Notes: generated from the sequence alone by a model not told the origin. A stretch of DNA of 64,000 nucleotides from Candidatus Aenigmatarchaeota archaeon (GCA_016180945.1 JACPAG010000002.1:128210-192209); one strand, 5' to 3'; numbered from the stretch's first letter, positions 1-26,663 are shown. Numbers and translations: made by a program.

Positions 1-1
1 C

Positions 2-6060: not shown

Positions 6061-6063
6061 ATT

Positions 6064-7143: not shown

Positions 7144-7149
7144 AAAGTA

Positions 7150-7210
7150 GTGTGCATCTATTTGATGCACACATATGCGTGACCCGTTGGATTCAGAAGT
7201 CCAATGGGTC
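7150..7210. repeat. Paired hairpins between convergent genes (possibly also terminator-like)
   Basis: GTGTGCATC-tattt-GATGCACAC and GACCC-G-TTGGA...TCCAA-T-GGGTC followed by a T-run. Confidence 0.55.
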
Positions 7211-7225
7211 TCTTTTTACACAAAG

Positions 7226-8652: not shown

Positions 8653-8678
8653 AGTATAGCCCTTTCCATAATATGATA

Positions 8679-9506: not shown

Positions 9507-9510
9507 TATA

Positions 9511-10572
9511 TCACCGTGGTGTTTTGTACCAACCTATACGCCTGCCAAGGGCTTTTTTTATCAGAATGCTAATGAAAACTCCGATGAAAATAATCATTGC
9601 AAGCGTCAATGCCGGAAGAACCGCAATAATTTCGGTTTTCCTCAGGTGTCTGGCGGAAAGAAGGAGTACCGTGGATAAACCTGCAATGCCGGGTATAAGA
9701 AAGACCGGGTTTACGATAGCCAAAAGAAGAAACGCCGGAGTAAATACGTAGAAAAGGGCTATGAAAAACAGCGTTGCCGATAGGACGGGATTTGTTCTCA
9801 AAGACTTGTTTATCTCATGAAAGCTTCCTGCTCCCCATCTCTCCTGCTGCTTGAAGAAATGATTTAGTCTTTTCGGCGACTCCTCTACGCATAGAGCCCA
9901 TGGATTGAAGACCACCTTCTTTTTTGCTTTGTAAAGCTTGTAAGAAAGATTTATGTCCTCTGAAAGAACATTATCAAATTTACCGACCTCAATCAATACG
10001 TTCCTCTTTATAATATAGTTTCTTCCGACGACAAACGCCGTTCCCAGCACTGTCGAAACCCAGTAATTTGTGGCGTTCAGAAACAGCGTTTCAAGACGTC
10101 CTAGGATGGACATTGCTGTCCTGCCTTCTGCGATAACAATGCCTACAGATGCGTCACTATCGCCGATGGAAGAAAGCAGGTTCTTTATCGTCGATTTGGA
10201 TACCCTGCAGTCTGCGTCAATGAAATAAAGAAACTTTCCCTTTGCTTTATTCACAGCCATATTTAGTGCAGAGGCCTTTCCCTTTCCTGCCCTATCCATG
10301 ATTATACTGGCTCCGTACTTCCTGCAGATTTGTTTTGTAGCGCCGTCTTTGCTGCTGTCAACGATAATGATTTCCAGATTGCTATAGGACTTTTGCAGGT
10401 TTTTTAATGTCCGCTCTATTACTGTTTCTTCGTCCTTTGCGGGTATTATTACCGATACCCTGGGGGTTCCCGTATCTTTCAGTCGGGGCCTATACACGAT
10501 GGATGAAACCAGCATAATAAGATAGTTTGCTGCGATATAAACTGCAAACGCATACAATAGTCCATCAATCAC
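9511..10572 (-). CDS. Membrane-bound glycosyltransferase family 2 (processive-type motifs)
   Basis: IIPAKDEE, GKASALN, FIDAD, SED, QQERW (QxxRW), flanking TM helices. Confidence 0.9.
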   Translation of the reverse strand: MIDGLLYAFAVYIAANYLIMLVSSIVYRPRLKDTGTPRVSVIIPAKDEETVIERTLKNLQKSYSNLEIIIVDSSKDGATKQICRKYGASIIMDRAGKGKASALNMAVNKAKGKFLYFIDADCRVSKSTIKNLLSSIGDSDASVGIVIAEGRTAMSILGRLETLFLNATNYWVSTVLGTAFVVGRNYIIKRNVLIEVGKFDNVLSEDINLSYKLYKAKKKVVFNPWALCVEESPKRLNHFFKQQERWGAGSFHEINKSLRTNPVLSATLFFIALFYVFTPAFLLLAIVNPVFLIPGIAGLSTVLLLSARHLRKTEIIAVLPALTLAMIIFIGVFISILIKKALGRRIGWYKTPR

Positions 10573-10586
10573 AATTTCACCCTTAA

Positions 10587-10825
10587 TGCCCCCATCGGGA
10601 TTCGAACCCGAGCCTTAAGGTTTTAGCCGTTTTTCCGTCACAAGCAGAATGAGTGCATTCTGCTGTGCAGCAGAAGCTTTGCTTCTGCTTGCAACGCTTT
10701 TGCCGAGCAAAAGGGTTGGTCCGCAACCTCACGTCCTATCTGGAGCCTTCTTGCCCTTTTCTTTCTCCCAAGGGTCTTTCTTTTTGCGAAAAGAAAGAGG
10801 CTTATCCAAGCTAGACTATGGGGGC
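10587..10825 (-). tRNA. tRNA-Arg(GCG) with two introns (D-loop ~10739-10802; anticodon loop ~10622-10720)
   Basis: Acceptor GCCCCCA/TGGGGGC, T arm TCGGG-TTCGAAT-CCCGA, anticodon arm TGAGG-TT-GCG-GA-CCTTA; D-loop intron has BHB CT-TGGA-TAA-GCC/GGC-TCCA-GAT-AG. Confidence 0.88.
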
Positions 10826-10952
10826 ATCGATTCGATGCCTATAGCAATTGATTTATTCTACAATGCTTAAGTATGGTAAAAATTTTCGTCCTACTCATAC
10901 TTATTCTGAAGGACATAAGTTATCGAACATATTATAAATGTCCTTCAGGATA

Positions 10953-11000
10953 CCAGCAGAAAACGATGTTTTCTGTGGCGCCAGAGAGCTCTGCTCTCTG
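10953..11000. repeat. Paired-hairpin cassette
   Basis: GCAGAAAAC-gat-GTTTTCTGT and CAGAGAGC-tct-GCTCTCTG. Confidence 0.65.
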
Positions 11001-11083
11001 ATCATACCAAAGACATTTTTTGTTCAAAAATTAATGTCTTTGAGTATAAAAAGATTTTGAAAGAAGAAGGTAAGGATAAACAT

Positions 11084-11248
11084 ATGCCAATCAGATGTAC
11101 TTCATGCAAGGAAAATCTGCTGTCAGAGGACAATTTTACAAAGTTCCCCTGTCCTGATTGCCTTAAGTCGGAAATTACAAGATGCATGAAATGCCGGAGG
11201 AAAAACAATATCTACACCTGTCCGAGCTGCGGCTTCGAGGGACCGTGA
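11084..11248 (+). CDS. Small zinc-ribbon protein (DUF1610/HVO_2753-like)
   Basis: Four CxxC pairs (CTSC, CPDC, CMKC, CPSCGFEGP); conserved position upstream of aEF-1beta with TGATG coupling. Confidence 0.88.
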   Translation: MPIRCTSCKENLLSEDNFTKFPCPDCLKSEITRCMKCRRKNNIYTCPSCGFEGP

Positions 11249-11517
11249 TGGGCCAGGTTGCAGCTACATTGACCGTCATGCCGGACAGCCCTGTTGCTGA
11301 TATCAAAAAAATCAAGGAAGAAATTAAAAAAATCGCAGCCCGGCACAAAAACATCCAGCTAAAGTCAATGGAAGAAAAGCCGGTAGCTTTCGGGATAAAA
11401 TCCATAGAGGTTCTTCTTGTTCTTCCTGATTCTGGCGGCACCGATGCCATAGAGCAGGATATACTGAAAATCCCGGGCATATCCAGCATCGAAGCCGGGG
11501 ATGTCACATTGATATAA
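11248..11517 (+). CDS. ef1b: Translation elongation factor aEF-1beta
   Basis: MGQVAATLTVMPDSP...PVAFGIKSIEV motif. Confidence 0.92.
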   Translation: MGQVAATLTVMPDSPVADIKKIKEEIKKIAARHKNIQLKSMEEKPVAFGIKSIEVLLVLPDSGGTDAIEQDILKIPGISSIEAGDVTLI

Positions 11518-11556
11518 ATACTAATCTTGAATTATAGTTATGTATAAGGTGAAGGT

Positions 11557-12681
11557 ATGCGAAAGTCTCTTCCTGTTTTGGTAATTGCAATTCTTGTATT
11601 CTCGGCACTAGCGTTAGCAGCAGGCAGTGGCAAGGTCCGGGTTATTGCCCATACGGATAAAGATGTCTCGGATGCAGTTGCAAATGGCTGTAAAGTGGTT
11701 AGGGAAGCAAAAACACTGAAGGCGTTAATCTGCAATGCGGATGTTGCTGCTGCACTGGAATTGCAGGAAGATGTCCAGGTATTTGCCATGGATTCAGGAG
11801 CTAACACCCAGATAAGGGCGGATTTAGTTCAATCGTCCGGGAACAGCGGTGCTGGACGAAAGGTTGTTGTGGTTGACACAGGATATAATTATAACCATCC
11901 GGAGTTAAGCTCCAGTTATCTGGGCGGAAGGGATTTTGTAAATAATGACAATGACCCGCTGGACGATAATGGTCACGGCAGTCATGTGGCAGGGATTATA
12001 ACCGCTGACGGCATTGACGCGAAGGCAAAAGGCGTTGCGCCTGCAGCAGGCGTAATTGCTGGCAAGGTCTTGAGTGCTTCTGGTTCTGGTTACTTCAGCG
12101 ATGTTGTTGCAGCAATCTACTGGGCAGTTGACGGTCCGGACGGCGTTTACGGCACAGTTGACGATTTCGGCGCAGATGCAATAAGCATGAGCCTTGGGAC
12201 ATCACAGCCTTATACGTACAAAGGTTTCTGCGACGGCGTTTTGCCGGATTTGACAAATGCGATTAAATATGCAGTTGACAGGAGCGTAATCGTAGTTGTG
12301 GCAGCTGGCAACAGCGGAGGCGCGGGCGTTTCAATCCCTGGGTGCATAAGTTACTCAACAACGGTTGGTGCTGTAGATAGCGGGGATAAAATTGCCAGAT
12401 GGTCTGGAAAAGGAAGTGCAGTTGATATTTCAGCCCCAGGTGTAAATATTTATTCATCTTGGCTTGGAAGCGAGTACAAAACAGCAAGCGGCACAAGCAT
12501 GGCAACGCCGATGGTAAGCGGAACAGTGGCTTTAGTCAAATTTGCTCATCCAGAATATACAGTAGCCCAAATAGAAAGTGCATTGTTCAATACAGCAAAA
12601 GATTTAGGAAAGGCAGGCAAAGATACAAGCTATGGCTGGGGTCGTGTTGACGTATATAGTGCAGTGAATTACGCAGCTTAA
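11557..12681 (+). CDS. Secreted subtilisin-like serine protease (S8)
   Basis: Signal peptide; catalytic triad motifs VVDTG, HGSHVAG, GTSMATP; oxyanion VVAAGN. Confidence 0.93.
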   Translation: MRKSLPVLVIAILVFSALALAAGSGKVRVIAHTDKDVSDAVANGCKVVREAKTLKALICNADVAAALELQEDVQVFAMDSGANTQIRADLVQSSGNSGAGRKVVVVDTGYNYNHPELSSSYLGGRDFVNNDNDPLDDNGHGSHVAGIITADGIDAKAKGVAPAAGVIAGKVLSASGSGYFSDVVAAIYWAVDGPDGVYGTVDDFGADAISMSLGTSQPYTYKGFCDGVLPDLTNAIKYAVDRSVIVVVAAGNSGGAGVSIPGCISYSTTVGAVDSGDKIARWSGKGSAVDISAPGVNIYSSWLGSEYKTASGTSMATPMVSGTVALVKFAHPEYTVAQIESALFNTAKDLGKAGKDTSYGWGRVDVYSAVNYAA

Positions 12682-14543: not shown

Positions 14544-14915
14544 CTACGTCGCAGTAGTTGTCGTTGATGAGGCTGCTGTAGTCTGGCACCCGCATCTTGC
14601 GTAACACTGGTTGTCACTACCTGTAGTTTTCAGAGCTAGTTTTTCACAAATGAAATTTAGGCTATGCGCCTGCGGAGAACTCTCCCCTATCTCCTGATAT
14701 TTTACCTCTACATCGCCGCCTTTGCCAGTGGCGCAGTTATAAACGCTTCGCAGAGTCTGGCACGCCGAATCCAGCGCCGTGTTCCGCACAATAGAAATCT
14801 GGCTTCCTCCCGTGCCGGAAGCAAAGAACGCCGCGACAACAACAAGAACTAATACCGCTACCGCAACGATGACTATCGTCTCTATAGGCAAAGATATACC
14901 CTTCATTTTTACCAT
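14544..14915 (-). CDS. Type IV pilin-like protein (class III signal peptide)
   Basis: MVKMKG|ISLPIE followed by hydrophobic helix; Cys-containing head, Thr-rich tail. Confidence 0.82.
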   Translation of the reverse strand: MVKMKGISLPIETIVIVAVAVLVLVVVAAFFASGTGGSQISIVRNTALDSACQTLRSVYNCATGKGGDVEVKYQEIGESSPQAHSLNFICEKLALKTTGSDNQCYARCGCQTTAASSTTTTAT

Positions 14916-14965
14916 TTATTATTGTTATATTTCCCTATTTATATAGATTGATGCCGAATAAGAGA

Positions 14966-15075
14966 AACTCAAGCACTCTGCACCCCTAGGGTGCAGTATC
15001 TATTATGCTGAGGTGCTGTGTTATGAGGCAACTCACCTGTTTGATAAAGCAAAGAACATTCTTGCCTTACTTCAG
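14966..15075. repeat. Palindromic intergenic element (family F)
   Basis: CTGCACCC-CTA-GGGTGCAG hairpin; segment AAGCAAAGAACATTCTTGCCTTAC is nearly repeated at ~62226-62246. Confidence 0.45.
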
Positions 15076-15135
15076 TAAAAGCAAGTTATTTATTGTGCCA
15101 ACTAATCAGCTTCGTTAACAAAAAGAAAAAAGGGC

Positions 15136-15420
15136 TTACTTCCCCAGAACAAGGTCTATCGTCGAGACGTTCAACTTCTCTTTGTTCTCCCCTTCCAGCT
15201 CTTCTGTCCCGATTTTTATGTCCTTGTAGACCAGTTCTTTCACGAACCTGTTCTTCACAATCTCAGCCACATCAACGGCTGTGCTTATCGCTTTCCCGCG
15301 CGCCCTTATCTTTATCTCAGTTTGCCCCTTGTCGTTCAGCTGCGTCAGCACTGCCATGACGTAAGACATTGTTGGCTTCCTGCCAATGAAGACAACATTG
15401 TCAGCTGCCCTTTCTGCCAT
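15136..15420 (-). CDS. albA: DNA/RNA-binding protein Alba
   Basis: [32 protein letters not shown]; GAGGTGA RBS before ATG GCA. Confidence 0.95.
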
Positions 15421-15541
15421 ACTGTTCACCTCGTTTTTGAATGCTGAATATGATTCTGTGCTTTGCGCTGGACAATACTGAATTAAAGTTAAGCTGAAGG
15501 TTCCTGCGTTCTTATCTTACTTATCTCTTGGGGGAAAGTTT

Positions 15542-15640
15542 TTATAGTCATGCAAGAAAAGAATTGGTATAATACTTTCTTGCTGACTGTATGTAAAACC
15601 AGAAGTATTATATGTTTATTCTTTTCTGGTTTTACTATAA
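15542..15640 (-). mobile_element. Family B two-lobed palindromic element, minimal 99-bp form
   Basis: Terminal TTATAGT...ACTATAA; homologous to 19735-19933 and 32973-33120 but without the central insert. Confidence 0.75.
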
Positions 15641-15643
15641 ATG

Positions 15644-16063
15644 CTAAGATGGTGCTATGCAGCAATATGGCTTTGCTGTGTCATCATTGCAGCGGCCTAA
15701 TTCAACTGTGAGACCAGTTGTTGATTGGCTGCATAGACCTGCGCAATTTCCATTGTTAGCCTCGCATTCTGCCTTTGTTGTTATCTGCGGGCAGAACGTA
15801 GCACAGCACGCGCGTACAACGGGTGTTCCCAAGCTTTTGCATACCTTATTCAGTTCAGCCACATCTCCAGAAGGCGACCCTCTGCACTCCTTGTTGTTAG
15901 CCACATATTTGGTGCACAAATCTGCCCTTTGCCCTTCCATCTTTATCCTGTCTATTCCCGGATTCACGCTTGTCGAGAAGAAGAACAGCAGTGCCACAAG
16001 AACTATGACTGCTAAGACTATTATTACCGTTGTTTCTACCGGCAGCGAGATGCCCTTTTTCAT
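15644..16063 (-). CDS. Type IV pilin-like protein (class III signal peptide)
   Basis: MKKG|ISLPVE plus hydrophobic helix; Cys-rich head. Confidence 0.82.
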   Translation of the reverse strand: MKKGISLPVETTVIIVLAVIVLVALLFFFSTSVNPGIDRIKMEGQRADLCTKYVANNKECRGSPSGDVAELNKVCKSLGTPVVRACCATFCPQITTKAECEANNGNCAGLCSQSTTGLTVELGRCNDDTAKPYCCIAPS

Positions 16064-16154
16064 GAATATAATTAGCCGAGTGAATTAATAAAAGTATGAA
16101 GTTGGATGATAAGGTTGCTTGAGATGATAAGATAAATTTAATTAAATCAGATTT

Positions 16155-17540
16155 TCATACAGCTTTGCAGCCCTTGGGGACACTGCACACGGTACTTCCG
16201 AGTGTACATTCGCTGCAGCCGTCTCGAACGTCCCGTGTACATCTGTACTTTGTTATTTTCTCCTTGCAATCGCATCCCTCAATGGGCTTGTCAGCTTCTG
16301 CGGGGCATTTATCGCCAGTGCACTGATATTTGGTTTCAATAGGCACGCATGTCCACCCATCTATTGGAACAGCCGATTCCTTCTCCTCCGGGCATGTCCA
16401 TTTCTTTTCTATCCAGTTACCGCCAAAGGCGGTGCAGTAGCATTGCGACTCGTCTACGGCTTTGGAATCTTTAAACTTTGATTCGCCGCATCCAAAATCG
16501 CCGGCCCTGCCGCCGCATGTCAGTTTATTAGAGCCTATACCAGTTATATCTGTATCGCAGCTGTATATCCTGCCGCCGTCGCAGGCCATGTCGTTTGCCG
16601 ATGAGAACGTGAAAAGTTTTCCATTATTTTCCGTGCAGCTTAATGCCACCAGATAATCCTCTGCCTTAACAGTCACAGAAAACGGCTTTTTCTCGAATTT
16701 GTTTTCGTCCAGATAATGATAAAGCGCTTCCCTTTCTGAAAATTGCCCTTTTATTATGTAATGGAAAAGAAGGCCGGATAATGGCGGCAGGATACCGGCT
16801 TCTGTAGATGTAGCCACCAGCAATCCTGACGTTTCTACTGTAAACTTCTTTTCAAGGTCAGTTGAAATACCTTCAAATGTATTCTTAATTGAATTTTCTG
16901 CCTGTGATTTGTAAGTGTTGCTGTTAGAACTATAAGCTGGTATCTTCACATTCTCCGCCGTCTGGGTAAATAGTTTTCCTGCATCCAAAAGTTTTTTTAA
17001 CTGTATCAAAAAACTATATGTGTTATCAACCCTCTTTGGCGATTCTGTCGTCGGCTTTCTTTCATCGCCGGCAAAGGCTTTTAGGGTTCCCAGAACCTGC
17101 ACGATTATTTTAGAATCCTGAAGCGTAAATACGAGTGTTACACTGCTCCTCAATTTTATGCCGTCTACTTCGTCGACACTGTCGAAACCTTTATAGGATT
17201 TCGAAAGACTCGCCAGATATGCCTTTATTTCATCGTTACTAGGAATTTTACCAATCTGTGATCTATCCGCAGGGTTGATTTTGTACCAGAATTCGCTTCC
17301 AAAACCGCTTTGACCACCATCAAAGATTTGGCGCAAAGAAGAAAGATTCCATGTGACATTCAAAGACTTTTCCGCCAACAGAAGGGTATTCTTTGTCCTA
17401 AGCACTTCTACTTCTCCAAAGACGATATGCTGGTGCTTTAGCTTGTAAACTACAGCATCCTGGTAGAATAACCTTACAAGCATAAATAAAACAAAGACTA
17501 CCACTATGCCCAATACAACCCAGCCAGCACTACCCTTCAC
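16155..17540 (-). CDS. Large pilin-like surface protein with Cys-rich C-terminal domain
   Basis: MKG|SAGWVVLGIVVVFVLFMLV N-terminus; many Cys in the last ~160 aa. Confidence 0.72.
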   Translation of the reverse strand: MKGSAGWVVLGIVVVFVLFMLVRLFYQDAVVYKLKHQHIVFGEVEVLRTKNTLLLAEKSLNVTWNLSSLRQIFDGGQSGFGSEFWYKINPADRSQIGKIPSNDEIKAYLASLSKSYKGFDSVDEVDGIKLRSSVTLVFTLQDSKIIVQVLGTLKAFAGDERKPTTESPKRVDNTYSFLIQLKKLLDAGKLFTQTAENVKIPAYSSNSNTYKSQAENSIKNTFEGISTDLEKKFTVETSGLLVATSTEAGILPPLSGLLFHYIIKGQFSEREALYHYLDENKFEKKPFSVTVKAEDYLVALSCTENNGKLFTFSSANDMACDGGRIYSCDTDITGIGSNKLTCGGRAGDFGCGESKFKDSKAVDESQCYCTAFGGNWIEKKWTCPEEKESAVPIDGWTCVPIETKYQCTGDKCPAEADKPIEGCDCKEKITKYRCTRDVRDGCSECTLGSTVCSVPKGCKAV

Positions 17541-18417
17541 CTATCGTCACCACCAGTTTTTTCATCCTGTCTTTAAACAGCAACGGTATAGAAGCCTCTG
17601 CAGCAAAAGATTCCTCGTCAATTGCGCCCTTCCTTGCGAGGACATTCGTGCCCTCCTCTAAGACCGTGCTTAGCTTATCACAAATCTTGGGGTCTTCTGC
17701 ATCATCAAGAGCGCCTTTTGTGATGCCGAAATGCAGATGACAGCCAGCCTGTTTTTCCGCGCCGCAAGTGCTCACGTAACCTATCACCTCGCCCCTCTTT
17801 ACGTTTCGGGCCTTTCTATCAAGGATTTCAATGCAGCCGTAGAAGGACCGGTAGCCTCGCAATTCTTTCAAATCGCATATATCCTTATGCTCTATCTCAA
17901 GCCCTTCTTTGCCGCCGAATGCTGTGCCGCCAAAAACCTTGTCACCAGTTAGCCCCGGTCCTAATGTCGATAATCTCCCGCCGCAAATAGCTTTTACAGG
18001 TGTCCCGCAATTAGAAGAAATATCAGCGGCTTTATGGTCATTGCGAAAAGGCGTTGTACACGAAAGAGCAGATATACTGGCGCCTTCAAGCCGGACAATA
18101 TAAGGAAAATCGTAATTGTCTAGCAGTTCCTTAATGGCCTCTGAGGCTTTGGACAGCGTAGCTGCATCAACCTTTGTCATTGATGCAACAATGACAGGCT
18201 CCAAAAGAGGCTTGCCATCTATTTCTGAATTAACCAGAGTATTTGCTACAACGTAAGGTTTATTGAACGTTCCTATGACTTCTATGCCGCCTGCCCCAAA
18301 AAACTGCAGCGATATAACTGATACCACAAATATGACCAAAGATGCCACTATGGCTATAACGCTTACAACGGCTACAACCACGCCGACAAAGATTGGAAGT
18401 ACGGAGAATCCCTTCAT
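17530..18417 (-). CDS. Pilin-like protein with inserted M23 metallopeptidase domain
   Basis: MKG|FSVLP plus hydrophobic helix; HKAAD (HxxxD), GTPVKA, VKRGEVIGYV, HLHFGI (HxH). Confidence 0.8.
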   Translation of the reverse strand: MKGFSVLPIFVGVVVAVVSVIAIVASLVIFVVSVISLQFFGAGGIEVIGTFNKPYVVANTLVNSEIDGKPLLEPVIVASMTKVDAATLSKASEAIKELLDNYDFPYIVRLEGASISALSCTTPFRNDHKAADISSNCGTPVKAICGGRLSTLGPGLTGDKVFGGTAFGGKEGLEIEHKDICDLKELRGYRSFYGCIEILDRKARNVKRGEVIGYVSTCGAEKQAGCHLHFGITKGALDDAEDPKICDKLSTVLEEGTNVLARKGAIDEESFAAEASIPLLFKDRMKKLVVTIGEG

Positions 18418-18857
18418 TTTCCACAGCGCTCCACTTTCGTATCGTAAACACTCACTTTCAGGTTTGCAGGAAAGATGCCGTTTGAATGTATGTACACAGG
18501 AAGGGCAACAGAGAATACGTCATCCTTGCCGTTAAATCCGAATGACCATGAATTTTTATTATCCAGTTTCTGGGGAGATGTTACAGTAACATGATAAGCA
18601 TAGCAGTGCCTCACGGGCTCGGTTGACGCACCATCAAGCTCATTTAGTTTGCCGAGCAGCAACCCGCCGTTCCTTGAAATGTCGCTGTTCAGAAGATTTT
18701 CAGCTATCTCATATGTCGCTCTTCTGACAGCGTTATGCTCTATGCTTACTGATATGCGCGAGTTCATGAACGCAAGAAACAGCGGCGTGAGTATTACTAT
18801 CACAGCTATGAATACGAAGATTATTATCTCCGGTATGGACATTCTTGTCTCTGCCAT
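18414..18857 (-). CDS. Minor pilin-like protein (N-terminal anchor)
   Basis: MAETRMSIPEIIIFVFIAVIVIL; overlapping, operonic with neighbours. Confidence 0.65.
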   Translation of the reverse strand: MAETRMSIPEIIIFVFIAVIVILTPLFLAFMNSRISVSIEHNAVRRATYEIAENLLNSDISRNGGLLLGKLNELDGASTEPVRHCYAYHVTVTSPQKLDNKNSWSFGFNGKDDVFSVALPVYIHSNGIFPANLKVSVYDTKVERCGK

Positions 18858-18859
18858 TG

Positions 18860-19294
18860 TTATTCACACGGTTTTGTTTTTTGCGAAGCCTTTATCGTAT
18901 CAAGGCATCGCATGATATAAGCGGCGCCGTCCTTGCACTCCAGTTTTGCGGGTTCAATGCTCAGGGCTGTTTTTATTATGCCGCTTTTTGAAGATTGTCT
19001 TAGTGTAGTAAGTTTTAGCGTAGGAATCCATGGTTGTGATTGCACAGAAATCACAACATTATCAGGGCTTATCTCTACGGTGCAGTCCTTGTTCAGTTCA
19101 ACAACATGAAACGTCCCGCTCGGCGATGCCTGCAGAAGGTTTATTATGCCAGCTATCTCGTTCGCCCTCATAGATAGCTGCTGTTCCAGCGATTCGTTGG
19201 TTGTATCGAATAGGAGGCGGACCAAAAAGCCGACAAATATGACAAGCACGAGTATCAGCACTATTAACGTTACCAGCGTCATTCCTTTGGCCAT
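18860..19294 (-). CDS. Type IV pilin-like protein (class III signal peptide)
   Basis: MAKG|MTLVTLIVLILVLVIFVGFLV. Confidence 0.75.
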   Translation of the reverse strand: MAKGMTLVTLIVLILVLVIFVGFLVRLLFDTTNESLEQQLSMRANEIAGIINLLQASPSGTFHVVELNKDCTVEISPDNVVISVQSQPWIPTLKLTTLRQSSKSGIIKTALSIEPAKLECKDGAAYIMRCLDTIKASQKTKPCE

Positions 19295-19390
19295 GATTAT
19301 AATTGTAACGACTGGTTATTATCTTTTCACACCCCTCCGAAGCCCCTAGAAAGAATAAAAACAACCTAGACCATAAAGAATAATTAAAAA

Positions 19391-19519
19391 ATGATATCCA
19401 TGTTCCCTATTCCAATTGATCTTGCAAAAAAGTCTTTGATGTCCCTGATAATTTTATTTATCCTCGCATTGGTCGTATTGCACCTTATATCGGGCGCAGG
19501 AGGCGTATTCAAGTCATGA
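19391..19519 (+). CDS. Micro membrane protein, pilin-like (42 aa; not in ORF track)
   Basis: MISMFPIPIDLAKKS|LMSLIILFILALVVLHLISGAGGVFKS*; ATGA overlap with next ORF. Confidence 0.5.
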   Translation: MISMFPIPIDLAKKSLMSLIILFILALVVLHLISGAGGVFKS

Positions 19520-19677
19520 CATATAAGAAAGGTATCAGCATTCCGCCTAACCTGGCATTCTGGGTTATCGCGGGCCTGATAATGGCTTTTGTGGCACTTC
19601 TTGTATTACAAGGCCCTGTACTATCGAGCTTGCTCAAAGGCACCCCTCCGTCTATCTTCTCAATTATCCAGTCCTAA
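19516..19677 (+). CDS. Micro type IV pilin (53 aa; not in ORF track)
   Basis: MTYKKG|ISIPPNLAFWVIAGLIMAFVALLVL...; same KG|IS[LI]P motif as the pilins at 14544 and 15644. Confidence 0.75.
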   Translation: MTYKKGISIPPNLAFWVIAGLIMAFVALLVLQGPVLSSLLKGTPPSIFSIIQS

Positions 19678-19734
19678 AACCTAAGGAGAATGAAATTTCT
19701 AGGCTTACTTTATAATGATACTTATTTTAGTTAT

Positions 19735-19933
19735 TTATAGTGAAACCAGAAAAGAATCGGTATATTAATTTCTGGTTTTACATACACGCAAAAAGCAGAG
19801 CTTTTCTCTCAGAAACAGAAGTTTCTGGAGACTCAGGAAAGCTTTGCTTTCCTCGAGTTGGTGCACCAGAAAACTTTGTTTTCTGCGTGTAGTCAGCAAG
19901 GAAGTAATCCTTTATTTCCTTGCATGACTATAA
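19735..19933 (+). mobile_element. Family B element, 199-bp form with nested paired-hairpin inserts
   Basis: Same ends as 15542-15640; ~100 bp extra between CATAC and AGTCA. Confidence 0.75.
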
Positions 19934-19983
19934 CCATAGTTAATAGGAGAGGTCCTCCTTATATTGCTAGATGGCTGACAAAA

Positions 19984-20958
19984 ATGGATATGGGCATAGA
20001 AAAAGTTGTTGTGTATGTGGTCATCCTCCTTGTCTGCACTTACATAGCTGTTATTTTCATAACTTCTGTGCTGATACCAAAAAAAGTAGAAGCTGGAAAT
20101 ACAACAAAGATTGTAGACCGCGTTACCGGTTCATTGTGGTTTTCTAATGAACCGGAGATAGTTGTGAGAAGTAAAAAAATAAACGGCGAATTCGAATACA
20201 GCGTCGATGCATCAATCGGCATGCGGTTTGACGGCAAAACCGCCGAAGAAATTACCGCATTTCCCGTGGTTTCGTTTAAAGGCGCTAAAAACAGGGACGA
20301 CAAAGCTACTGATATCACAATAAAGAAAGGCGAAACAAAATATACAGCACTCAATTTCAAGCTGCGGAGCATGGAAAGGCCGATGATTATCAATGACAAG
20401 AGCACAGAATTCAGATGCGGATCTGATTTGTCGAAATGTCTTGTTTACGACAAGCAGAAGCTGTTGCTGAAAGACTTCTTCTTTTCATTTTCGGCTTTCC
20501 AGATAGTGCCTAAAATAGGGCCTTGCGTCCTGGTTTCGGAAATCCAGTGCCCCGGAGAAAAGAGGGTTGTTAATCTTAAGTTGGATGACGAAAAAGAGCC
20601 ATGCAATAGTCAGGAAGAGAAAAAAAACTGCGCCAAAACAGAAAAGATGTGCGGGACGCTTGCAAATATCCAGCTTGTTAAAATAGAGACGGATGAAAGC
20701 CTTCTGGAAAGAATATTGCCGGGATCGCCAAGCTGCGGCGACAAGGCATTTGCAGTCGATATTAGTGTAGGCAGTGTTGACAAAAACATTTTCGCCGGCA
20801 AGTTCGGATGGAAAATAGGGGAAGACATAACATTTGGTTTCTGGGAAAAGACTGATAAAAAAGACCCGGAAAACTGCTGGAGAGATGGTGGCGAAGGCTG
20901 CGCAGACCTGTACCTTGGCGAAAAGGTTGTCACCATCCCTGTAGAAAGTTATAAGTGA
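19984..20958 (+). CDS. Membrane-anchored surface protein, Cys-containing (pilin cluster)
   Basis: MDMGIEKVVVYVVILLVCTYIAVIFITSVL anchor; the upstream ORF-track extension runs through a repeat element. Confidence 0.7.
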   Translation: MDMGIEKVVVYVVILLVCTYIAVIFITSVLIPKKVEAGNTTKIVDRVTGSLWFSNEPEIVVRSKKINGEFEYSVDASIGMRFDGKTAEEITAFPVVSFKGAKNRDDKATDITIKKGETKYTALNFKLRSMERPMIINDKSTEFRCGSDLSKCLVYDKQKLLLKDFFFSFSAFQIVPKIGPCVLVSEIQCPGEKRVVNLKLDDEKEPCNSQEEKKNCAKTEKMCGTLANIQLVKIETDESLLERILPGSPSCGDKAFAVDISVGSVDKNIFAGKFGWKIGEDITFGFWEKTDKKDPENCWRDGGEGCADLYLGEKVVTIPVESYK

Positions 20959-20962
20959 TTTT

Positions 20963-21592
20963 ATGGGCGAAAAAACAGGCAACTTTGTCTTGCTTAAGGG
21001 CATGGCTATAAACATGTCAGTCCTGCTGATGGTCGTTCTTGTCGCGCTTGTTGTAATGTTTCTGCTGGCTGGTGTGTTCAAGGATTTTGTGTTCCAGCGA
21101 CAGGGTCTTTTCGGCCTGGTTCCGGGAACAGAAACAGTAACCGTGACAGACAGGGACACAAGCGAAATAGTCACGATTGACTGCAAGATTTTAACTGCCA
21201 GAAATCCTCCGGATGAATACGAATATAAGATAACATTTAACAAGGTAGGATTTGATTATACTTCCAAAGCCAAAGTATTCCCTGTTATTGGATTCAGAGG
21301 ATTAACAGCTGCGTCCCAGCCGGAAGAGGTCGAGATTCCAGAAAGAATAAGCTTCAGTTCGCTTCCTATAAGGTATAAATTAACAGGCGTTGATAATACA
21401 AAATTGACAGAATTCTACAATAACCAAACCAAGGAAACAAAAGAAACCGTATTGGTGGGATTTTTCAAACATGATGAAAAGTGCCTGGCTCTGGCCAAAG
21501 CTTCAGTCAGCTTAGACAGATTTGTTGACGAGTGCGCGAGGAAACTGGAAACTGCAACGAGTGTCGTAGCCACGCGCAAGGCTTGTGGTTGA
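20963..21592 (+). CDS. Pilin-like protein (class III signal peptide)
   Basis: ...LLKG|MAINMSVLLMVVLVALVVMFLLAGVF. Confidence 0.7.
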   Translation: MGEKTGNFVLLKGMAINMSVLLMVVLVALVVMFLLAGVFKDFVFQRQGLFGLVPGTETVTVTDRDTSEIVTIDCKILTARNPPDEYEYKITFNKVGFDYTSKAKVFPVIGFRGLTAASQPEEVEIPERISFSSLPIRYKLTGVDNTKLTEFYNNQTKETKETVLVGFFKHDEKCLALAKASVSLDRFVDECARKLETATSVVATRKACG

Positions 21593-21593
21593 T

Positions 21594-21740
21594 ATGTCTG
21601 AAGCGATGGAATTGCCTTTTGGCTTGTCATGGGAGGTTGTTGTCATGCTTATAGCTTTGGGGATAATGGCTATTATTATTTTCGGAAATCCGCAGTTCAT
21701 GGAACGCATAATGTCTTTCATCGGCGGAAGCCTAAGATAA
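21594..21740 (+). CDS. Micro membrane protein (48 aa; not in ORF track)
   Basis: MSEAMELPFGLSWEVVVMLIALGIMAIIIFGNPQFMERIMSFIGGSLR*; fills the gap in the operon. Confidence 0.55.
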   Translation: MSEAMELPFGLSWEVVVMLIALGIMAIIIFGNPQFMERIMSFIGGSLR

Positions 21741-21779
21741 AGGTTATTTAGTTCTGAAACAAATAAATATTCTGATTGC

Positions 21780-21920
21780 ATGCGCATGGAATACATACTG
21801 GTAGGATTGATTATAGCCCTGGTGGTTTTGCTAGCCCTGCTTGTATTAAGCGGCGGAATTGTTCCTGGATTCAAAGAAGGGTTGAAAAGCCTGGCGAATT
21901 TTGTCGGCATAAAGGTATAG
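21780..21920 (+). CDS. Micro membrane protein, pilin-like (46 aa; not in ORF track)
   Basis: MRMEYILVGLIIALVVLLALLVLSGGIVPGFKEGLKSLANFVGIKV*; stop 2 nt before next ATG. Confidence 0.6.
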   Translation: MRMEYILVGLIIALVVLLALLVLSGGIVPGFKEGLKSLANFVGIKV

Positions 21921-21922
21921 TC

Positions 21923-24520
21923 ATGAAAGGGTTCATTGAAGACACCATATTCATAGTTGTAGAAGTCGTCCTGATAGCTATTTTTGCTGTTCTGCTTTCC
22001 CGTGCTGTAGGAGCTGTCTTTAACCCGGACAAAGAGGTTGTTACTCTAAACACCGAACTTCTAAGATCAAAAATAAACGAGGCCTGCCAGTTTAAAGAAA
22101 ATGAGATAAAACTGGATAAATTCAATTTCCCGCAGCCCAAGCCGTCCAGAATTTTTGGCATAACAGATTTCCTGCCAACTTACTCCATATCCGGCTCAGG
22201 GGCTGCCGACCCGCACTACGTTCTATACTATGAATCCTTTCCGCCAGGCGAAGCCATAGGATGGGAGGCGTATCTCGATTTCGGTACACGCTTCATCGCG
22301 CCTTTTGATTATGCGAAATATACGAATTCGGACAAGCTTAAGGGCAAAAACAGTAAGATTACTGGTCCTGAAGTAGACAAGTTTTTCAAAAACGCAACGG
22401 CGTATGAGACAGAAGTAATATCAAAAGCCGAGAGCTTTACCGAATCAGAATTCGGCGAAGCAGGCACCGGTGCAATAATATCTTATATCGCCGACACGGA
22501 GCCTGATAAAGCAAGTCTCCCATGGGAAAAAATAGAATTGAACACCGGACCTGCGAAAAACACCCTAAAAGCGGATAAAGGCGAACTGGAGTTCAGAACG
22601 CCAATAGACGGTTCCGTTGTATTTCGAAGGCAGGAAAACGAATCATCGACAACTGCTTGGATGAAAGTAAAACTAAAGGTAGAAGAGGCCCGCAGGCTCG
22701 GAGGTTGGCCGTGGGAAGATAAAGGGGTTGAAAAGATTTTCATTTCTGTGAGCAATGCGCCTTATAGGGCTGACCTGATATTTAGGGAAGACAAAATAAT
22801 TCTTAGCGGAGAAGCAAGAAGCGAGGTTGAAATCAAGGCAAAAGATTACCATATCTACAAGCTTAAAATGAAGGACGGAGAGGTAACGGTTTCGGTTGAT
22901 GGCAAGCCCGAGATACAAGGAAAGAAAGCGAAGGCAGGGACGGGTAATGTATTTCTATTTGGCTCTGCGGACCCCGATAATCCGGCAAAAGGAAAGCGTG
23001 GCTCAACCGAATCGTATTGGGATTACATCAAATACTCCGGCACTGACGTAGAGCCTTCTGACATTGCAGAACAAAAATCAGAACTGGCGAAAAAGCCGGT
23101 GCTCATAAACAACATTATTCTTAGCGACAATCTTAATGTTATACCAACTGAAGAGCCTAAGCCGCCCGGTTCTGATATAACAAAATCCATAAAGCAACTG
23201 GGCAATGCCGGCGAATGGATTGGCAACCGCTTTGAATTCACAGACTACTTCGGCCTGACAAAAGAAGAGCGCGCCTACATAAAATATCTGCCTTGCGACG
23301 ATAATGCGCTGTGCCTGAAAACTCGTGACGCTGTCCAAAGGTTTAAACTGGATAATGCCTGCGCCGGTGCAAAATATATCCAGATGGTTTATGATGCAAC
23401 TGGATTAAAACCAGAAGATTTGATGCCTGCCGCCTATATAGCCGGTGATGTTGCCGGTCTTAAAGCCCTTTCAAAGGCGCAAGAAAGACTTGGCAACAAG
23501 GCAGCAGACGAGGCGTTTACTAAAAAATTTCTTGATACTACGCTTAGATTAGAAGGCAAAGACCCAAGTTTATTGAAGAAAGAAAATATTTTCAAATCCT
23601 TCTTCAAGGCGTTTGGCAGAAAATCTTTGGCAAAAACTGCCGGAAAATTTGCAGGACCGCTAAAATTTGTTCTAATCGCTGATATAATTGTTCATCAAGC
23701 CCCGGATCTTGCAAGAAGTGTAATGGAAGCAACACTCCGCTACAAGAATTCTGAGTTCTACATAGCAAGCCCTTGTCAGCTGAAAAGCGGTACAATTACG
23801 ATAAAATACGAAGCTAAGTGTCAGGACAAAGAAGAGCTATGTAGCGAGGGTATAACTTACCCGCTCTACAAATATGAGGTCGCACCAGATGGCACTAAAA
23901 CTATCGAAAATGTCGGCGACCATTTCATGTGCCTTGAAAGCGTCGGAAAAGACAAGGGCGAGTCAGAAGAATATAAAGAGAAATATAAGGAGGAAATTAA
24001 AGCAGATCCGCCAAATAAAGAAAATGTTCCTTGCATAAAAATAAAGATGGACGATGTCAAACGGGGCGATTTCTGCTGGACAAACAATCCTGTATTTCCA
24101 AAGAAGGGATTAATTGATAGACTTCAGAGTTTTGTCCCTGGAAAAACAGAAGCTTTGGATGCAATAATAGGTTGCGGCATCGGTACTCTAATCACAGCAC
24201 CGACAGTTGTTGGTATCTTTGCAGGTTGTGCTGCAGGTGCCGGTACTAGTCTTGCCGTAGATGAAGCAAGCAACATTTGGGGCGCTGTGACAGGTGAGAA
24301 GAGCCTAAAAGAGCATTTGTTTGTCCGTCTTGGCGGTCTTCCTGTCACAGAAGGCACGTCTTATCTGACAGTTTCGGATGAGGAGAAAAAAGCCGATCCA
24401 AATAAGTATCTTGAGGCAGTAGAAATGGGCCCTACTGACGTGATTGGCGGTTCTGCTGCAAAGCGGTTCGGCGAGGTTGCAAAAGACTTCTTCGAAATCC
24501 ACTGGGCATGGCCACGATAA
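21923..24520 (+). CDS. Giant pilin-like adhesin (865 aa) with ConA/LamG-like insert and glycine-zipper-like hairpin
   Basis: MKG|FIEDTIFIVVEVVLIAIFAVLL; beta-rich YHIYKLKMKDGEVTVSVDGK...YWDYIKY; AIIGCGIGTLITAPTVVGIFAGCAAGAG. Confidence 0.75.
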   Translation: MKGFIEDTIFIVVEVVLIAIFAVLLSRAVGAVFNPDKEVVTLNTELLRSKINEACQFKENEIKLDKFNFPQPKPSRIFGITDFLPTYSISGSGAADPHYVLYYESFPPGEAIGWEAYLDFGTRFIAPFDYAKYTNSDKLKGKNSKITGPEVDKFFKNATAYETEVISKAESFTESEFGEAGTGAIISYIADTEPDKASLPWEKIELNTGPAKNTLKADKGELEFRTPIDGSVVFRRQENESSTTAWMKVKLKVEEARRLGGWPWEDKGVEKIFISVSNAPYRADLIFREDKIILSGEARSEVEIKAKDYHIYKLKMKDGEVTVSVDGKPEIQGKKAKAGTGNVFLFGSADPDNPAKGKRGSTESYWDYIKYSGTDVEPSDIAEQKSELAKKPVLINNIILSDNLNVIPTEEPKPPGSDITKSIKQLGNAGEWIGNRFEFTDYFGLTKEERAYIKYLPCDDNALCLKTRDAVQRFKLDNACAGAKYIQMVYDATGLKPEDLMPAAYIAGDVAGLKALSKAQERLGNKAADEAFTKKFLDTTLRLEGKDPSLLKKENIFKSFFKAFGRKSLAKTAGKFAGPLKFVLIADIIVHQAPDLARSVMEATLRYKNSEFYIASPCQLKSGTITIKYEAKCQDKEELCSEGITYPLYKYEVAPDGTKTIENVGDHFMCLESVGKDKGESEEYKEKYKEEIKADPPNKENVPCIKIKMDDVKRGDFCWTNNPVFPKKGLIDRLQSFVPGKTEALDAIIGCGIGTLITAPTVVGIFAGCAAGAGTSLAVDEASNIWGAVTGEKSLKEHLFVRLGGLPVTEGTSYLTVSDEEKKADPNKYLEAVEMGPTDVIGGSAAKRFGEVAKDFFEIHWAWPR

Positions 24521-24742
24521 ACCCTTATCCTCTCAGTCGTAAGGTATGGCAAAAGAAATGGTAGCGAACATCGTCGGCCTCTCGTGGACATGGCCATCTT
24601 AAAATGTTTAAATATCCTAGCACAAATGATTATTGTGATGCTTATGACAAAAGATGAAAAAAAACTGGAAGAGCTGTATAAGAAATTGGATAAACGAAGG
24701 GTATTCGACAAATTAAAGAGGGCCCATCAAAAACTTCACAAG

Positions 24743-25188
24743 CTACAATAATTCTTTTGGATGTTTTATCTTTATATCGAATCCATGTTCTATAACTTTA
24801 TTATTGATTAATTTCGTATCGAGTGTAACAAGATTTATAGCTTTGTCTTCTACCGCAGTAGCTGATATCTCTCTATCTGTTGGAGTTATTCTGGGATCCA
24901 GTTCTAGAATTTTGTTTAGTATAGAGCCTATATTTCGAGGAACGTATAAACTAATTTTTCTTACCTTTATCAGATGAACAAAAGTATCCAGAAAATCGTG
25001 CATATCTTTGTAGTCATCAATCGAAACAATAGACGCTAAAATCTCTCCATAAACGGCCAATGAGATTCGTCCTTCGTAATTGTATCTACTTTTTGTAGGT
25101 ATCTTCTGCAACAACGCCCATTTTCAGTATGGTGTGGTTCAAGTATAATAGAAGTATCAATATGGTGCAAAGGCAAATTTCCTTTCAT
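24743..25188 (-). pseudogene. PIN/VapC-domain nuclease gene with a 1-nt frameshift
   Basis: N-terminus MKGNLPLHHIDTSII...YLQKV is in a different frame from YNYEGRISLAVYGE...TDREISATA...LVTLDTKL; shift at ~25085. Confidence 0.7.
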
Positions 25189-25190
25189 AA

Positions 25191-25814
25191 CTATCTCATC
25201 TCCACGCTTATTTTCGTCTTCAGGACTTCTTTCCCGTCTATTAGTTCTGTTTTCGTTCCCTTGTTCTCCAGAATTATAACATGCCCCTCGCCGACCGTAT
25301 TTGAGTTGCCAGTCAAATCTATCCTGTACGACTGCACGCCTTCCGTGTTCAGCTGGATGAATTTCAGGCTGTAGGTTGTTATGTAATTCTCCCCGACTTT
25401 TTCACTTCTTGCGCATAGCGTCTGCGGTTCATCTTGATTTGAAATCCCTTCGTCCGCCGTGCACGCATTCCTGCCGAGCAGTATAAACCCGCCCGGCGAA
25501 TAGATTGTGCCCGATGTGCCCGACACTTCCAGCAAAAGCCTCTTGGAGGCGGCATCAAACATCATTAGCGTTTTTATTTGCGGCGACGGGGAAGGCGGCA
25601 CGTCTACCGTCATCCTCCCCGGATGGTTGACGAGATTCTTTATCCCTCCCGCCAAATCGCTGATGAATATTTCAGAGTTATGCAAAACTGATACGCCTTC
25701 GTTTTTTCTGATAAGCGGCTCGCCCCAGATAAAAACAGCGGTTACCACGCCCAGCATCAGGCCGGTTAGCAATACAACATTAAGAATTTCAAGCGCTCCT
25801 TTTTGCGTTTTCAT
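25191..25814 (-). CDS. Pilin-like protein (class III signal peptide), paralog of 26007-26663
   Basis: MKTQKG|ALEILNVVLL; shared SGTSGTIYSPGGFI.LGRNACT and YxLKFIQLNTEG blocks. Confidence 0.8.
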   Translation of the reverse strand: MKTQKGALEILNVVLLTGLMLGVVTAVFIWGEPLIRKNEGVSVLHNSEIFISDLAGGIKNLVNHPGRMTVDVPPSPSPQIKTLMMFDAASKRLLLEVSGTSGTIYSPGGFILLGRNACTADEGISNQDEPQTLCARSEKVGENYITTYSLKFIQLNTEGVQSYRIDLTGNSNTVGEGHVIILENKGTKTELIDGKEVLKTKISVEMR

Positions 25815-25956
25815 AATAATTACTTGGAATGGCGTATAAAATAAACATGCTGAAATCTCAACATTCCACCTATCTTTAGATGGTGGTAGAATATGTGGAA
25901 TGTTTGGATGTAAAAAACACTGCCATAGTATCAGTGGCATAAGAAATATGAGAGAT

Positions 25957-26005
25957 GCAAGAAGAACTCAAAGAGTTCTTCTGCGCAGAAGGAACATAGT
26001 TCCTT
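25957..26005. repeat. Paired-hairpin cassette
   Basis: GCA-AGAAGAACTC-aaa-GAGTTCTTCT-GC then AAGGAAC-ata-GTTCCTT; the same hairpin recurs at ~48356. Confidence 0.7.
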
Positions 26006-26006
26006 A

Positions 26007-26663
26007 TCATTTCACTAAATCAAGAGCAACCCTGAACTTCTTTACCTCTTTTCCGTTTATAGAATCGGTTTTTGTGCCTTTGTTTTCAAGAAGAATGGAA
26101 CCGGAACTTGCTGATTTTGAGTCGCCTGTCAGGTCTATTTTGGACGACTGGGTGCCTTCCGTATTCAGCTGGATAAATTTCAGCGTATAGGTGGTCACGT
26201 AATTATCGCCTGTCTTGTCGCTGCTTACGCATACCGTCTGCGGCTCGTCCTGGTATGCAATCCCCTCGTTGGGCGTGCACGCGTTCCTGCCCAGTGCTAT
26301 GAAACCGCCCGGCGAATAGATTGTGCCCGATGTGCCTGATATTTCCAGTAGCAATATCTTGGATACGCTGTCAAATGACATTGTCATCTTTATTGCAGGC
26401 GAAGGCGATTGTGGCAGCTCTACAGAAGCCCTGGTACGTGACTGGTCATTGACGACCTCCTTTATTTTATCAGCCAAGCCGTTCATGAATTTCTCAGAAC
26501 TCTCTAGAACCGATACAGCTTCGCTTTTCCTCAGAAATGGCTCGCCCCATACAAAAACAGTTATTGCAACGCCAATCATAAGCATAGTGAGAGCGCCTGC
26601 GGTAAGCGGCTCTATGATACCCCGTTTATATTTCCTAGACCGCATGGAGAAAGGCATAGCCAT
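26007..26663 (-). CDS. Pilin-like protein (class III signal peptide), paralog of 25191-25814
   Basis: ...KYKRG|IIEPLTAGALTMLMIGVAITVFVWGEP. Confidence 0.8.
   Translation of the reverse strand: MAMPFSMRSRKYKRGIIEPLTAGALTMLMIGVAITVFVWGEPFLRKSEAVSVLESSEKFMNGLADKIKEVVNDQSRTRASVELPQSPSPAIKMTMSFDSVSKILLLEISGTSGTIYSPGGFIALGRNACTPNEGIAYQDEPQTVCVSSDKTGDNYVTTYTLKFIQLNTEGTQSSKIDLTGDSKSASSGSILLENKGTKTDSINGKEVKKFRVALDLVK

Follow-up and report, generated by a model that had tools for sequence, protein, structure and literature searches.

Here we describe a cluster of pilin-like genes at positions 14544–26663 of a 64,000-nucleotide stretch of DNA (C2:128210-192209, the whole of which is hereafter called the window) from a Candidatus Aenigmatarchaeota archaeon (GCA_016180945.1, JACPAG010000002.1), which, together with an ATPase and a platform protein encoded in the same window, appears to form a lineage-specific type IV filament (T4F) machine of the Aenigmatarchaeota whose murein-cutting and adhesive heads are turned to bacterial partners, a reading to which we give a probability of roughly 0.6. 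That the locus encodes a T4F machine with its pilin and accessory set is very probable, and that its heads are presented to bacterial walls for attachment or attack is an evenly balanced proposition; that this previously unclassified machine is an enzymatically armed pilus drilling into bacterial walls, in an archaeon-on-bacterium episymbiosis or predation, is a tentative extension. The genome analysed comprises 988 kb (987,615 bp) in 9 contigs and is 84% complete, and all evidence is computational, with gene starts inferred and the orthology of small proteins assigned by position and short motifs.

Within the cluster, an open reading frame (ORF) reading of the window revealed 15 ORFs, each with a single N-terminal hydrophobic helix, among archaeal-type neighbours (FEN1, Alba and thermosome). 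The residues [KR]G lie directly ahead of the helix in ten of them (A, B, C, D, F, H, J, M, O and P) and KS in G, while E, I, K and L carry no such motif. The genes fall into three transcription blocks, F-to-A and O plus P on the minus strand and G-to-M on the plus strand, of which the first and last are divergent across a 96-bp spacer, with overlaps or gaps of 1–4 nt within C-D-E-F, G-H, I-J-K and L-M. An initial annotation, made from the sequence alone, had described about ten ORFs with [KR][GS]|hydrophobic class III signals and about five further single-anchor ORFs in three operons, ranging from 42 to 865 residues, and this description held, with G and M as the extremes of length. One fixed class III-type rule, applied to every ORF of the genome, gave 60 matches, nine of them within the 12.1-kb cluster against 0.74 expected (Poisson P ~9e-8).

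The ATPase and the platform lie 8.5 kb from the cluster, close to the ~9 kb originally noted. The ATPase matches Pfam T2SSE (E 1.7e-15) and has afGspE (PDB 2oap, E 3e-32), FlaI and CpaF as its best solved relatives, and it scores far under every NCBIfam equivalog cut-off (best match FlaI, 141 bits against a cut-off of 550; BasE, 52 bits against 1000). Since the genome holds at least three other ATPase/platform pairs, together with other pilin loci bearing more typical KG|ISPL pilins, proximity alone cannot assign this motor to the cluster. We assign the ATPase and platform to it on the strength of synteny in relatives, where the two are joined. When the surroundings of M homologs were fetched from ten related genomes, nine showed a contiguous, co-directional order of ATPase-platform-(I, J, L, M)-(F, E, C, B, Alba, A)-FEN1. 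A platform-alignment scan with one genome per GTDB species yielded 67 loci, almost all titled Candidatus Aenigmatarchaeota, and iterated profile searches on the longer of these gave the canonical order three multi-transmembrane proteins-ATPase-platform-G-H-I-J-K-L-M-F-E-D-C-B/A-(Alba)-A-FEN1; platform orthologs in the Aenigmatarchaeota are 46–59% identical. It follows from this contiguous, one-strand order that the present genome is rearranged, with the G-to-M block inverted and the motor moved behind a block of glycosyltransferase and S8 subtilase genes. The three paralogous multi-transmembrane proteins (147–169 aa, C2:126623-128387), which immediately precede the ATPase both in this genome and in most relatives and have no family match in Pfam, may be unrecognised membrane parts of the machine.

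O and P, which the initial annotation had counted as members of the cluster, are better placed outside the canonical operon, because their pilin-like family lies elsewhere in relatives: the two are tandem paralogs, 59% identical, and the family, found in this genome too, has a single member in each of 50 of the 60 relatives, where it sits far away from the T4F genes. Its members may work with a different T4F motor of the genome. The class III peptidase, on whose presence in the genome the idea of a filament had been staked beforehand, was found as a single Peptidase_A24 (30.1 bits against a cut-off of 26.5). Judged from sequence, the ATPase, the platform, the class III-type subunits and this putative peptidase together supply all four core T4F parts in one genome.

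Several further features of the motor and its surroundings were recorded. The ATPase ortholog is ~500–680 aa longer in six relatives (L025, at 6056-9799, L023, L035, L042, L053 and L055); the extra segment begins right behind the Walker-B-like IISVED with S-VTGDTRI, ends in ...LLAHN|T and holds LAGLIDADG-like motifs (LWLADGCYD, LFSGDGYI), read directly from the sequence, features that identify it as a predicted intein with a homing endonuclease; the ATPase of the window has no intein. Further ATPase/platform or pilin loci of this genome lie at C6:7708-14554, C3:26.3-30.9 kb, C2:194.8-200.4 kb and C4:165.7-170.0 kb, and the genome contains a run of eight typical KG|ISPL pilin/archaellin-like genes (such genes being found at the C6 locus), so that surface filaments are a large investment for a 1-Mb genome. 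Between motor and cluster (6043-12681) we observed a GT4 gene, at least two GT2 glycosyltransferases (7226-7924 and 9511-10572), which flank two further ORFs, and a secreted S8 subtilase (11557-12681). The Thr/Ser-rich tail of pilin A could be glycosylated.

The heads of the cluster proteins carry the second part of the argument. D is predicted to bear an M23 metallopeptidase domain (Pfam PF01551, E 2.2e-8, 34.6 bits against a cut-off of 28.7; PDB 5kqb, E 9e-5) in which HKAAD (HxxxD), the EIEH histidine and HLH (HxH) are intact, and likewise in its three close homologs from metagenomes. Common to the D family are an N-terminal domain and a C-terminal strand (VPLLYK..G.LEVT), with a variable site between them: 12 of 13 related loci hold Cys-rich CG..G.C...C..GR modules there, a short ortholog (L070) has no insert, and M23 occupies it in this genome and in the three metagenomic homologs. 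A homolog search with the M23 region of D returned these three homologs and no bacterial donor. In the C family, whose profile search retrieved at least five close, unannotated proteins, the C-terminal head is M23, SLT, both, Amidase_2 or not recognised, depending on the locus (Table 1). The catalytic signatures of these heads are intact (FH.GIDI and HLHFE for M23; E-S, GLMQ and AYN.G for SLT; the His/His/Cys set for Amidase_2), except in the M23 domain of the double head of L082, where Asn stands in place of the first HxH histidine (NIH), and the M23 heads resemble solved murein endopeptidases, with matches to structures of the LytM, zoocin A, ShyA and LytU type.

The domain assignments thus show that heads are interchangeable on orthologous C and D scaffolds, which upholds the earlier proposal of modular filament cargo, since orthologous scaffolds bear different heads in different genomes. 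The M23 and Cys-rich heads named in the initial annotation were likewise borne out, whereas a "lectin-like" head found no Pfam or PDB match. The glycine-zipper stretch of M (residues 745–800) is a genuine lineage-specific insert, although this too has no match in Pfam or PDB. M itself, with no Pfam, NCBIfam or PDB match, has homologs in 45 of the 60 relatives, in addition to this genome, and a coverage profile places its conserved core at residues 1–130, 425–500 and 600–725. Peculiar to its own lineage are the glycine-rich hydrophobic segment just named and an insert at ~180–400, the one taken as lectin-like, which is jelly-roll-like by eye only, with no Pfam family at E <= 0.01 (residues ~160–393) and only a chance-level PDB match (190–381).

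Whole-genome domain searches of this genome and 60 relatives detected M23 in 26 of 61 genomes and SLT in 26 of 61. Of the 46 genomes with an M homolog, 17 (this one counted; Table 1) have an M23 and/or SLT ORF on the contig of M at a distance of 1–7 kb, typically ~4 kb, which is the C slot; this count, made by cross-reading three result tables, is a lower bound, since many assemblies are fragmented and amidases were uncounted. Among 42 large proteins with transmembrane (TM) anchors, mostly from distant loci, Pfam recognised FG-GAP, C-type lectin, βγ-crystallin/I36 and PKD domains, and only adhesin-type heads were found in the distant loci surveyed, which fits a contact organelle.

Such an assortment of large enzymes and binding proteins is also what one would see in a bindosome-like display or secretion device, in which a short pseudopilus or bindosome-type base would anchor or release class III-signal enzymes that digest free murein or dead bacterial walls for amino sugars and peptides, with living partners neither held nor attacked, an alternative that we regard as rather unlikely. 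DPANN genomes are those of auxotrophic scavengers, and here a secreted S8 subtilase and glycosyltransferases stand between motor and cluster. Class III signals are moreover known on non-filament functional proteins of the Sulfolobus bindosome and have been proposed to be widespread (PMC13705601). Against this alternative, no ABC transporter or sugar-uptake genes were linked in the loci examined; the small, multi-copy and strongly conserved pilins (A/B and H) are those expected of a real fibre, and the adhesin-type heads of distant loci suit contact above digestion.

The reading as a filament draws on the pilin signals and on two structure models, both built from shallow alignments. In an alignment of 30 sequences of the A/B family, K and G are each conserved at >= 90% right before the helix and four Cys are invariant; B gave a sub-threshold match to the archaellin/pilin N-terminal model TIGR02537 (E 0.043), the best among curated pilin/archaellin models. 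Orthologs of C, D and F mostly keep [KR]G, those of H keep [KR]KG|I.LTT, and those of E and M retain the motif only partly, E showing [KR]GQ only in distant orthologs. Orthologs of I and L never have [KR]G; L, conserved in 17 related loci and here, starts directly with MRIEY in those loci. The J slot is filled in relatives by poorly related proteins of ~280 aa. Whether conservation supports a class III signal thus depends on the family, and of the 15 ORFs initially taken as pilin-like, all of which do have a single helix, I, L, K, G and E show no conserved [KR]G and may function in assembly or anchoring instead of as pilins. An AlphaFold2 model of A, the candidate major subunit, built from the A/B alignment, has a predicted local distance difference test (pLDDT) score of 80.6 and a continuous helix over residues 11–59 (49 residues), as predicted for a pilin α1. 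The model of D is weak (pLDDT 55.8 overall, alignment of only 17 rows); it consists of an N-terminal helix, a small helical region and strands at 106–111, 259–263, 273–281 and 284–292 with pLDDT 66–94, the helix and four strands lying at 66–83, which form a four-stranded sheet that closes around the insert site.

An observation in its own right concerns G and H, whose slot proteins are fused in one ORF with two TM helices in L030, L031, L035, L041, L052, L078, L082 and L028 (between platform and I). In these fusions, [KR]KG|I.LTT is internal, ~60 residues in, on the cytoplasmic loop between the two helices, which would be an unusual precursor architecture if processed.

A number of findings weigh against a T4F contact machine directed at bacteria, and we consider them together. 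A recognisable peptidoglycan hydrolase is present in only about a third to a half of the loci, and Pfam detected no PG_binding or LysM domain on cluster or head proteins. In the present genome, the motor is separate from the cluster, the cluster is split into divergent blocks, and the gene for Peptidase_A24, an enzyme of putative specificity, lies unlinked to it on contig C4. No pilin, archaellin or T4F-accessory hidden Markov model (HMM) of Pfam or NCBIfam reached threshold on any cluster protein, and the orthologs of E, I, L, K and G do not share a cleavage motif. Of the pilin α1 helix and fold anticipated at the outset, the model of A bears out the helix, but its head, one β-hairpin and two short helices, is not the canonical pilin β-sheet, and a Foldseek search of the PDB returned nothing below E 1. 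The M23 insert of D (115–257) falls outside the modelled part, and Foldseek gave no fold match for the D model in the PDB.

The missing HMM matches, the heads without pilin fold matches and the several members whose orthologs lack [KR]G would also be expected if these were ordinary N-terminally anchored (type II or signal-anchor) envelope proteins that happen to sit beside a T4F motor, with [KR]G incidental, no A24 processing and no filament. We judge this very unlikely, given that the genes hold their order relative to the ATPase and platform throughout an order-level clade, that K and G are so strongly conserved in the A/B alignment at exactly the position before the helix, that the predicted 49-residue α1-type helix goes far beyond membrane-anchor length, and that nine class III-type matches fall where 0.7 were expected.

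The likely target of a T4F machine with such heads was approached through the lineage's own capacity to make a wall. Building murein takes the Mur-ligase middle domain four times, and pseudomurein draws on this domain as well. A search for it gave no match in this genome (84% complete) and at most one per genome in 10 of the 60 relatives, and single matches also occur in wall-less archaea among control genomes. SLT and Amidase_2 are specific for MurNAc-containing glycan, and the occurrence in one slot of three distinct chemistries for cleaving murein suggests that the substrate is bacterial peptidoglycan. With murein hydrolases as recurrent heads in a lineage without a murein pathway, bacterial peptidoglycan is the likely target, as far as domain content can tell. 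The original suggestion of host attachment or attack is supported and sharpened in this form, for a filament and a function that are both predicted. An archaeon needs no immunity protein against murein hydrolases, and this fits the absence of obvious partner genes.

Peptidoglycan hydrolases are common in the operons of bacterial trans-envelope machines, where VirB1, FlgJ and EtgA remodel the cell's own wall for passage, and a similar role for the present hydrolases, making way for the filament, was weighed as well. The Mur-ligase result, with the domain absent here and never more than single in relatives, whose occasional hits are matched in wall-less archaea, makes such remodelling unlikely; the type of hydrolase moreover varies between M23, SLT and amidase and many loci have none, which is unexpected for an essential step, so that we regard this explanation as highly improbable. 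That the locus is an archaellum serving motility is barely credible: FlaI is the best NCBIfam match of the ATPase and FlaI/FlaJ/FlaG-like genes have been listed in Aenigmarchaeota (PMC8407114), but the FlaI score is far short of its cut-off, no archaellin, ArlH, ArlCDE/X or ArlF/G was found on any cluster protein in Pfam or NCBIfam, nor any archaellin or Arl family on any protein of the locus, as the initial annotation had it, and typical KG|ISPL... archaellin/pilin-type genes are in another locus, C6.

For a T4F machine carrying murein-cutting and adhesive heads, we propose the following working. Precursors with [KR]G|hydrophobic N-termini, of which the motif is seen in the proteins and a candidate peptidase in the genome, would enter the membrane and be trimmed by the single A24 aspartyl peptidase. 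The ATPase and platform would then extract the subunits and polymerise a filament or short stalk, as the synteny and the α1-helix model suggest, which would consist mainly of the disulfide-rich small pilins A/B and might also include H, a headless pilin of 47 residues. The role of minor-pilin-like scaffolds would fall to F, E, D, C and M, most probably placed at the fibre tip or along its length, with the interchangeable outer heads seen in their orthologs. The murein-cutting head would be the M23 zinc endopeptidase on D here and M23, SLT, both or Amidase_2 on C in relatives. Because no ligase set for murein or pseudomurein is found in the lineage, the substrate of the heads would be foreign peptidoglycan of the bacterial type, and the cell could hold, locally open or lyse a bacterial partner or prey.

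Table 1 Genes of the pilin-like cluster, motor and peptidase genes, and heads of relatives (positions are those of the window unless a contig is given).
Feature	Size	Position	Strand	Description
Multi-TM protein, third of three paralogs		1-178	+	C-terminal part; no Pfam family
ATPase	741 aa	1687-3912	+	FlaI/GspE/TadA superfamily, divergent; long N- and C-terminal extensions
Platform	653 aa	4027-5988	+	Pfam T2SSF above cut-off; two T2SSF repeats in one ORF
A	123 aa	14544-14915	-	Small pilin, MVKMKG|ISLPIETIV...; 6 Cys in head, Thr/Ser-rich tail
Alba		15136-15429		Inside cluster span; not pilin-like
B	139 aa	15644-16063	-	Small pilin paralog, MKKG|ISLPVETTV...; 12 Cys in head
C	461 aa	16155-17540	-	MKG|SAGW; conserved scaffold of ~300-350 aa and variable C-terminal head (18 Cys)
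D	295 aa	17530-18417	-	MKG|FSVLP; predicted M23 (residues ~120-240) between conserved N-domain and conserved C-terminal strand
E	147 aa	18414-18857	-	Conserved single-anchor protein; orthologs 140-390 aa
F	144 aa	18860-19294	-	Conserved minor-pilin-like, MAKG|MTLV...; weak GspG-like N-terminus, E 0.14
G	42 aa	19391-19519	+	One TM helix; part of an in-frame fusion with the H-type pilin in some relatives
H	53 aa	19516-19677	+	Headless pilin, MTYKKG|ISIPP...; Flp/EpdE-like in form
I	324 aa	19984-20958	+	Conserved single-anchor protein; no conserved [KR]G
J	209 aa	20963-21592	+	...LLKG|MAINM...
K	48 aa	21594-21740	+	Single-TM protein; slot conserved
L	46 aa	21780-21920	+	MRMEY start and TM helix, no leader
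M	865 aa	21923-24520	+	Conserved large subunit, MKG|FIED...
PIN-like ORF		24743-25188	-	No TM helix; outside pilin set
O		25191-25814	-	Pilin-like, MKTQKG|ALEIL...; paralog of P
P		26007-26663	-	Pilin-like, ...KYKRG|IIEPL...
Peptidase_A24		C4:93602-93943		Pfam PF01478, 30.1-31.8 bits against cut-off 26.5; FWDLL and GGAD motifs
C-family head, M23		L022, L027, L056		Pfam
C-family head, SLT		L036, L046		Pfam
C-family head, SLT plus M23		L082		Pfam
C-family head, Amidase_2		L073		Pfam
C-family head, none recognised		Own C and several other loci		Pfam; 18 Cys in own C
Genomes with M23/SLT near M		G000, G003, G006, G008, G011, G012, G016, G018, G019, G021, G022, G027, G038, G039, G040, G046, G058		17 genomes

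The divergent arrangement of the cluster is probably real, because the closest relative (G008) has the same divergent orientation of M and C; misassembly as its source was rejected on this ground. A palindromic hairpin cassette (TTTATAGTCATGCAAGAAAAGAAT ... ATTCTTTTCTGGTTTTACTATAAA) occurs at 15541-15642, in the spacer between Alba and B, and at 19733-19933, in the 306-bp spacer between H and I, in inverted relative orientation. Repeats of this cassette as the cause of a local inversion were rejected, as the breakpoints, located at F|G (19295-19390) and behind M, are away from the repeats. Elsewhere in the window, two overlapping ORFs on the minus strand between M and O (Table 1) jointly resemble a PIN-domain (VapC-like) gene, with ...HHIDTSIILEP... 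at the start, and this gene is split by a frameshift, as a pseudogene or through a sequencing error. At 55481-57298, a 605-aa protein combines PIN, a T2SSE-like P-loop ATPase and KH domains in the manner of archaeal PilT-N/KH ATPases and has no relation to the pilus locus.

Previous work gives these observations their context. DPANN T4P loci contain unrecognisable "dark matter" pilins (Makarova et al., PMC6393860), and DPANN T4F genes are rarely found in one locus, their pilins being mostly scattered and mostly unassignable to a subsystem (Sivabalasarma & Albers 2026, PMC13705601); in contrast to this picture, the locus described here is an ordered one of ~18 genes. It would give a function to ~15 lineage-specific "dark matter" membrane genes and revise the view of DPANN pilins as scattered and unclassifiable. 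In a paper on Aenigmarchaeota metagenome-assembled genomes, pili take up one sentence (PMC8407114). Archaeal peptidoglycan hydrolases are known to kill bacteria in a study that mentions neither pili nor pilins (PMC12352652), and in a PLoS Biology 2025 survey, 68% of them had no known signal peptide, some of which class III-type signals could explain. If the proposed machine exists, it would add a third delivery route for archaeal antibacterial peptidoglycan hydrolases, beside Sec/Tat secretion and contractile injection systems, and would extend the modular-pilin idea from adhesion to catalysis. As far as is known, every DPANN archaeon in culture lives on archaea. That murein-cutting enzymes of three unrelated classes have been recruited again and again to this conserved, putative contact machine is, in addition, a concrete and testable pointer to bacterial partners. 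Our literature search found no description of a murein hydrolase on a class III-signal or pilin-like scaffold in a T4F operon, an absence that is not proof; within the literature searched, the combination is undescribed.

The closest functional counterparts among hydrolases are the Woldo/Danwoldo proteins of Halogranum salarium, archaeal M23-type and other peptidoglycan hydrolases directed against bacteria, with a patchy, domain-shuffled distribution (PMC12352652). Those proteins are soluble, secreted by Tat or Sec and equipped with PG_binding_1, whereas the enzymes described here have a class III-type N-terminus and a fixed slot in a T4F operon; D in fact falls outside the definition of a modular peptidoglycan hydrolase used in that study, having a catalytic domain only and an N-terminus that is class III-like rather than Sec or Tat. 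Murein-lytic domains in DPANN have also been described on the giant extracellular SLT proteins of Woesearchaeota and Pacearchaeota, which were read as a sign of interaction with bacterial walls (PMC8204110). These stand alone, unlike the present hydrolases, which sit on a pilin-like scaffold of ~300–900 aa inside a T4F locus. Relatives within the Aenigmatarchaeota have giant ORFs (1000–3600 aa) with SLT and/or M23 as well, away from the T4F locus (G056:C6:85305, G038:C13:7868, G004:C3:248283-249212, G020:C32:5334 and others), and these resemble the Woesearchaeota/Pacearchaeota ones.

Among surface machines, the Sulfolobus bindosome (Bas) shares the principle of class III signals on functional cargo that is installed at the surface by a T4F base, but its cargo consists of sugar-binding proteins with ABC transporters, in contrast to the predicted murein hydrolases and adhesin-like domains found here with no transporter. 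The logic by which a functional module (vWA or lectin) is grafted onto a pilin module in PilB and PilC of Streptococcus sanguinis, lending their filament an added activity (PMC8179133, PMC9934059), is followed by D, through its insert, and by C, through its C-terminal head; the S. sanguinis proteins differ in being bacterial, in having modules that are adhesive rather than catalytic, and in showing no sequence relationship.

The nearest known relative in layout is the Epd or system 1 pilus of Methanococcus maripaludis (Makarova et al. 2016; PMC13705601), a type reported as the most common T4F in DPANN, with which the locus shares an ATPase and platform, many co-operonic pilin and accessory genes, and a headless, very short pilin, like H here. 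It departs from Epd in having one fused platform gene with two repeats instead of two genes, an ATPase with ~220 extra N-terminal and ~110 extra C-terminal residues, and a peptidase on another contig in place of the in-operon EpdA; none of its pilin families is recognised by existing models (Pfam and NCBIfam searched), and its enzyme heads are undescribed for Epd.

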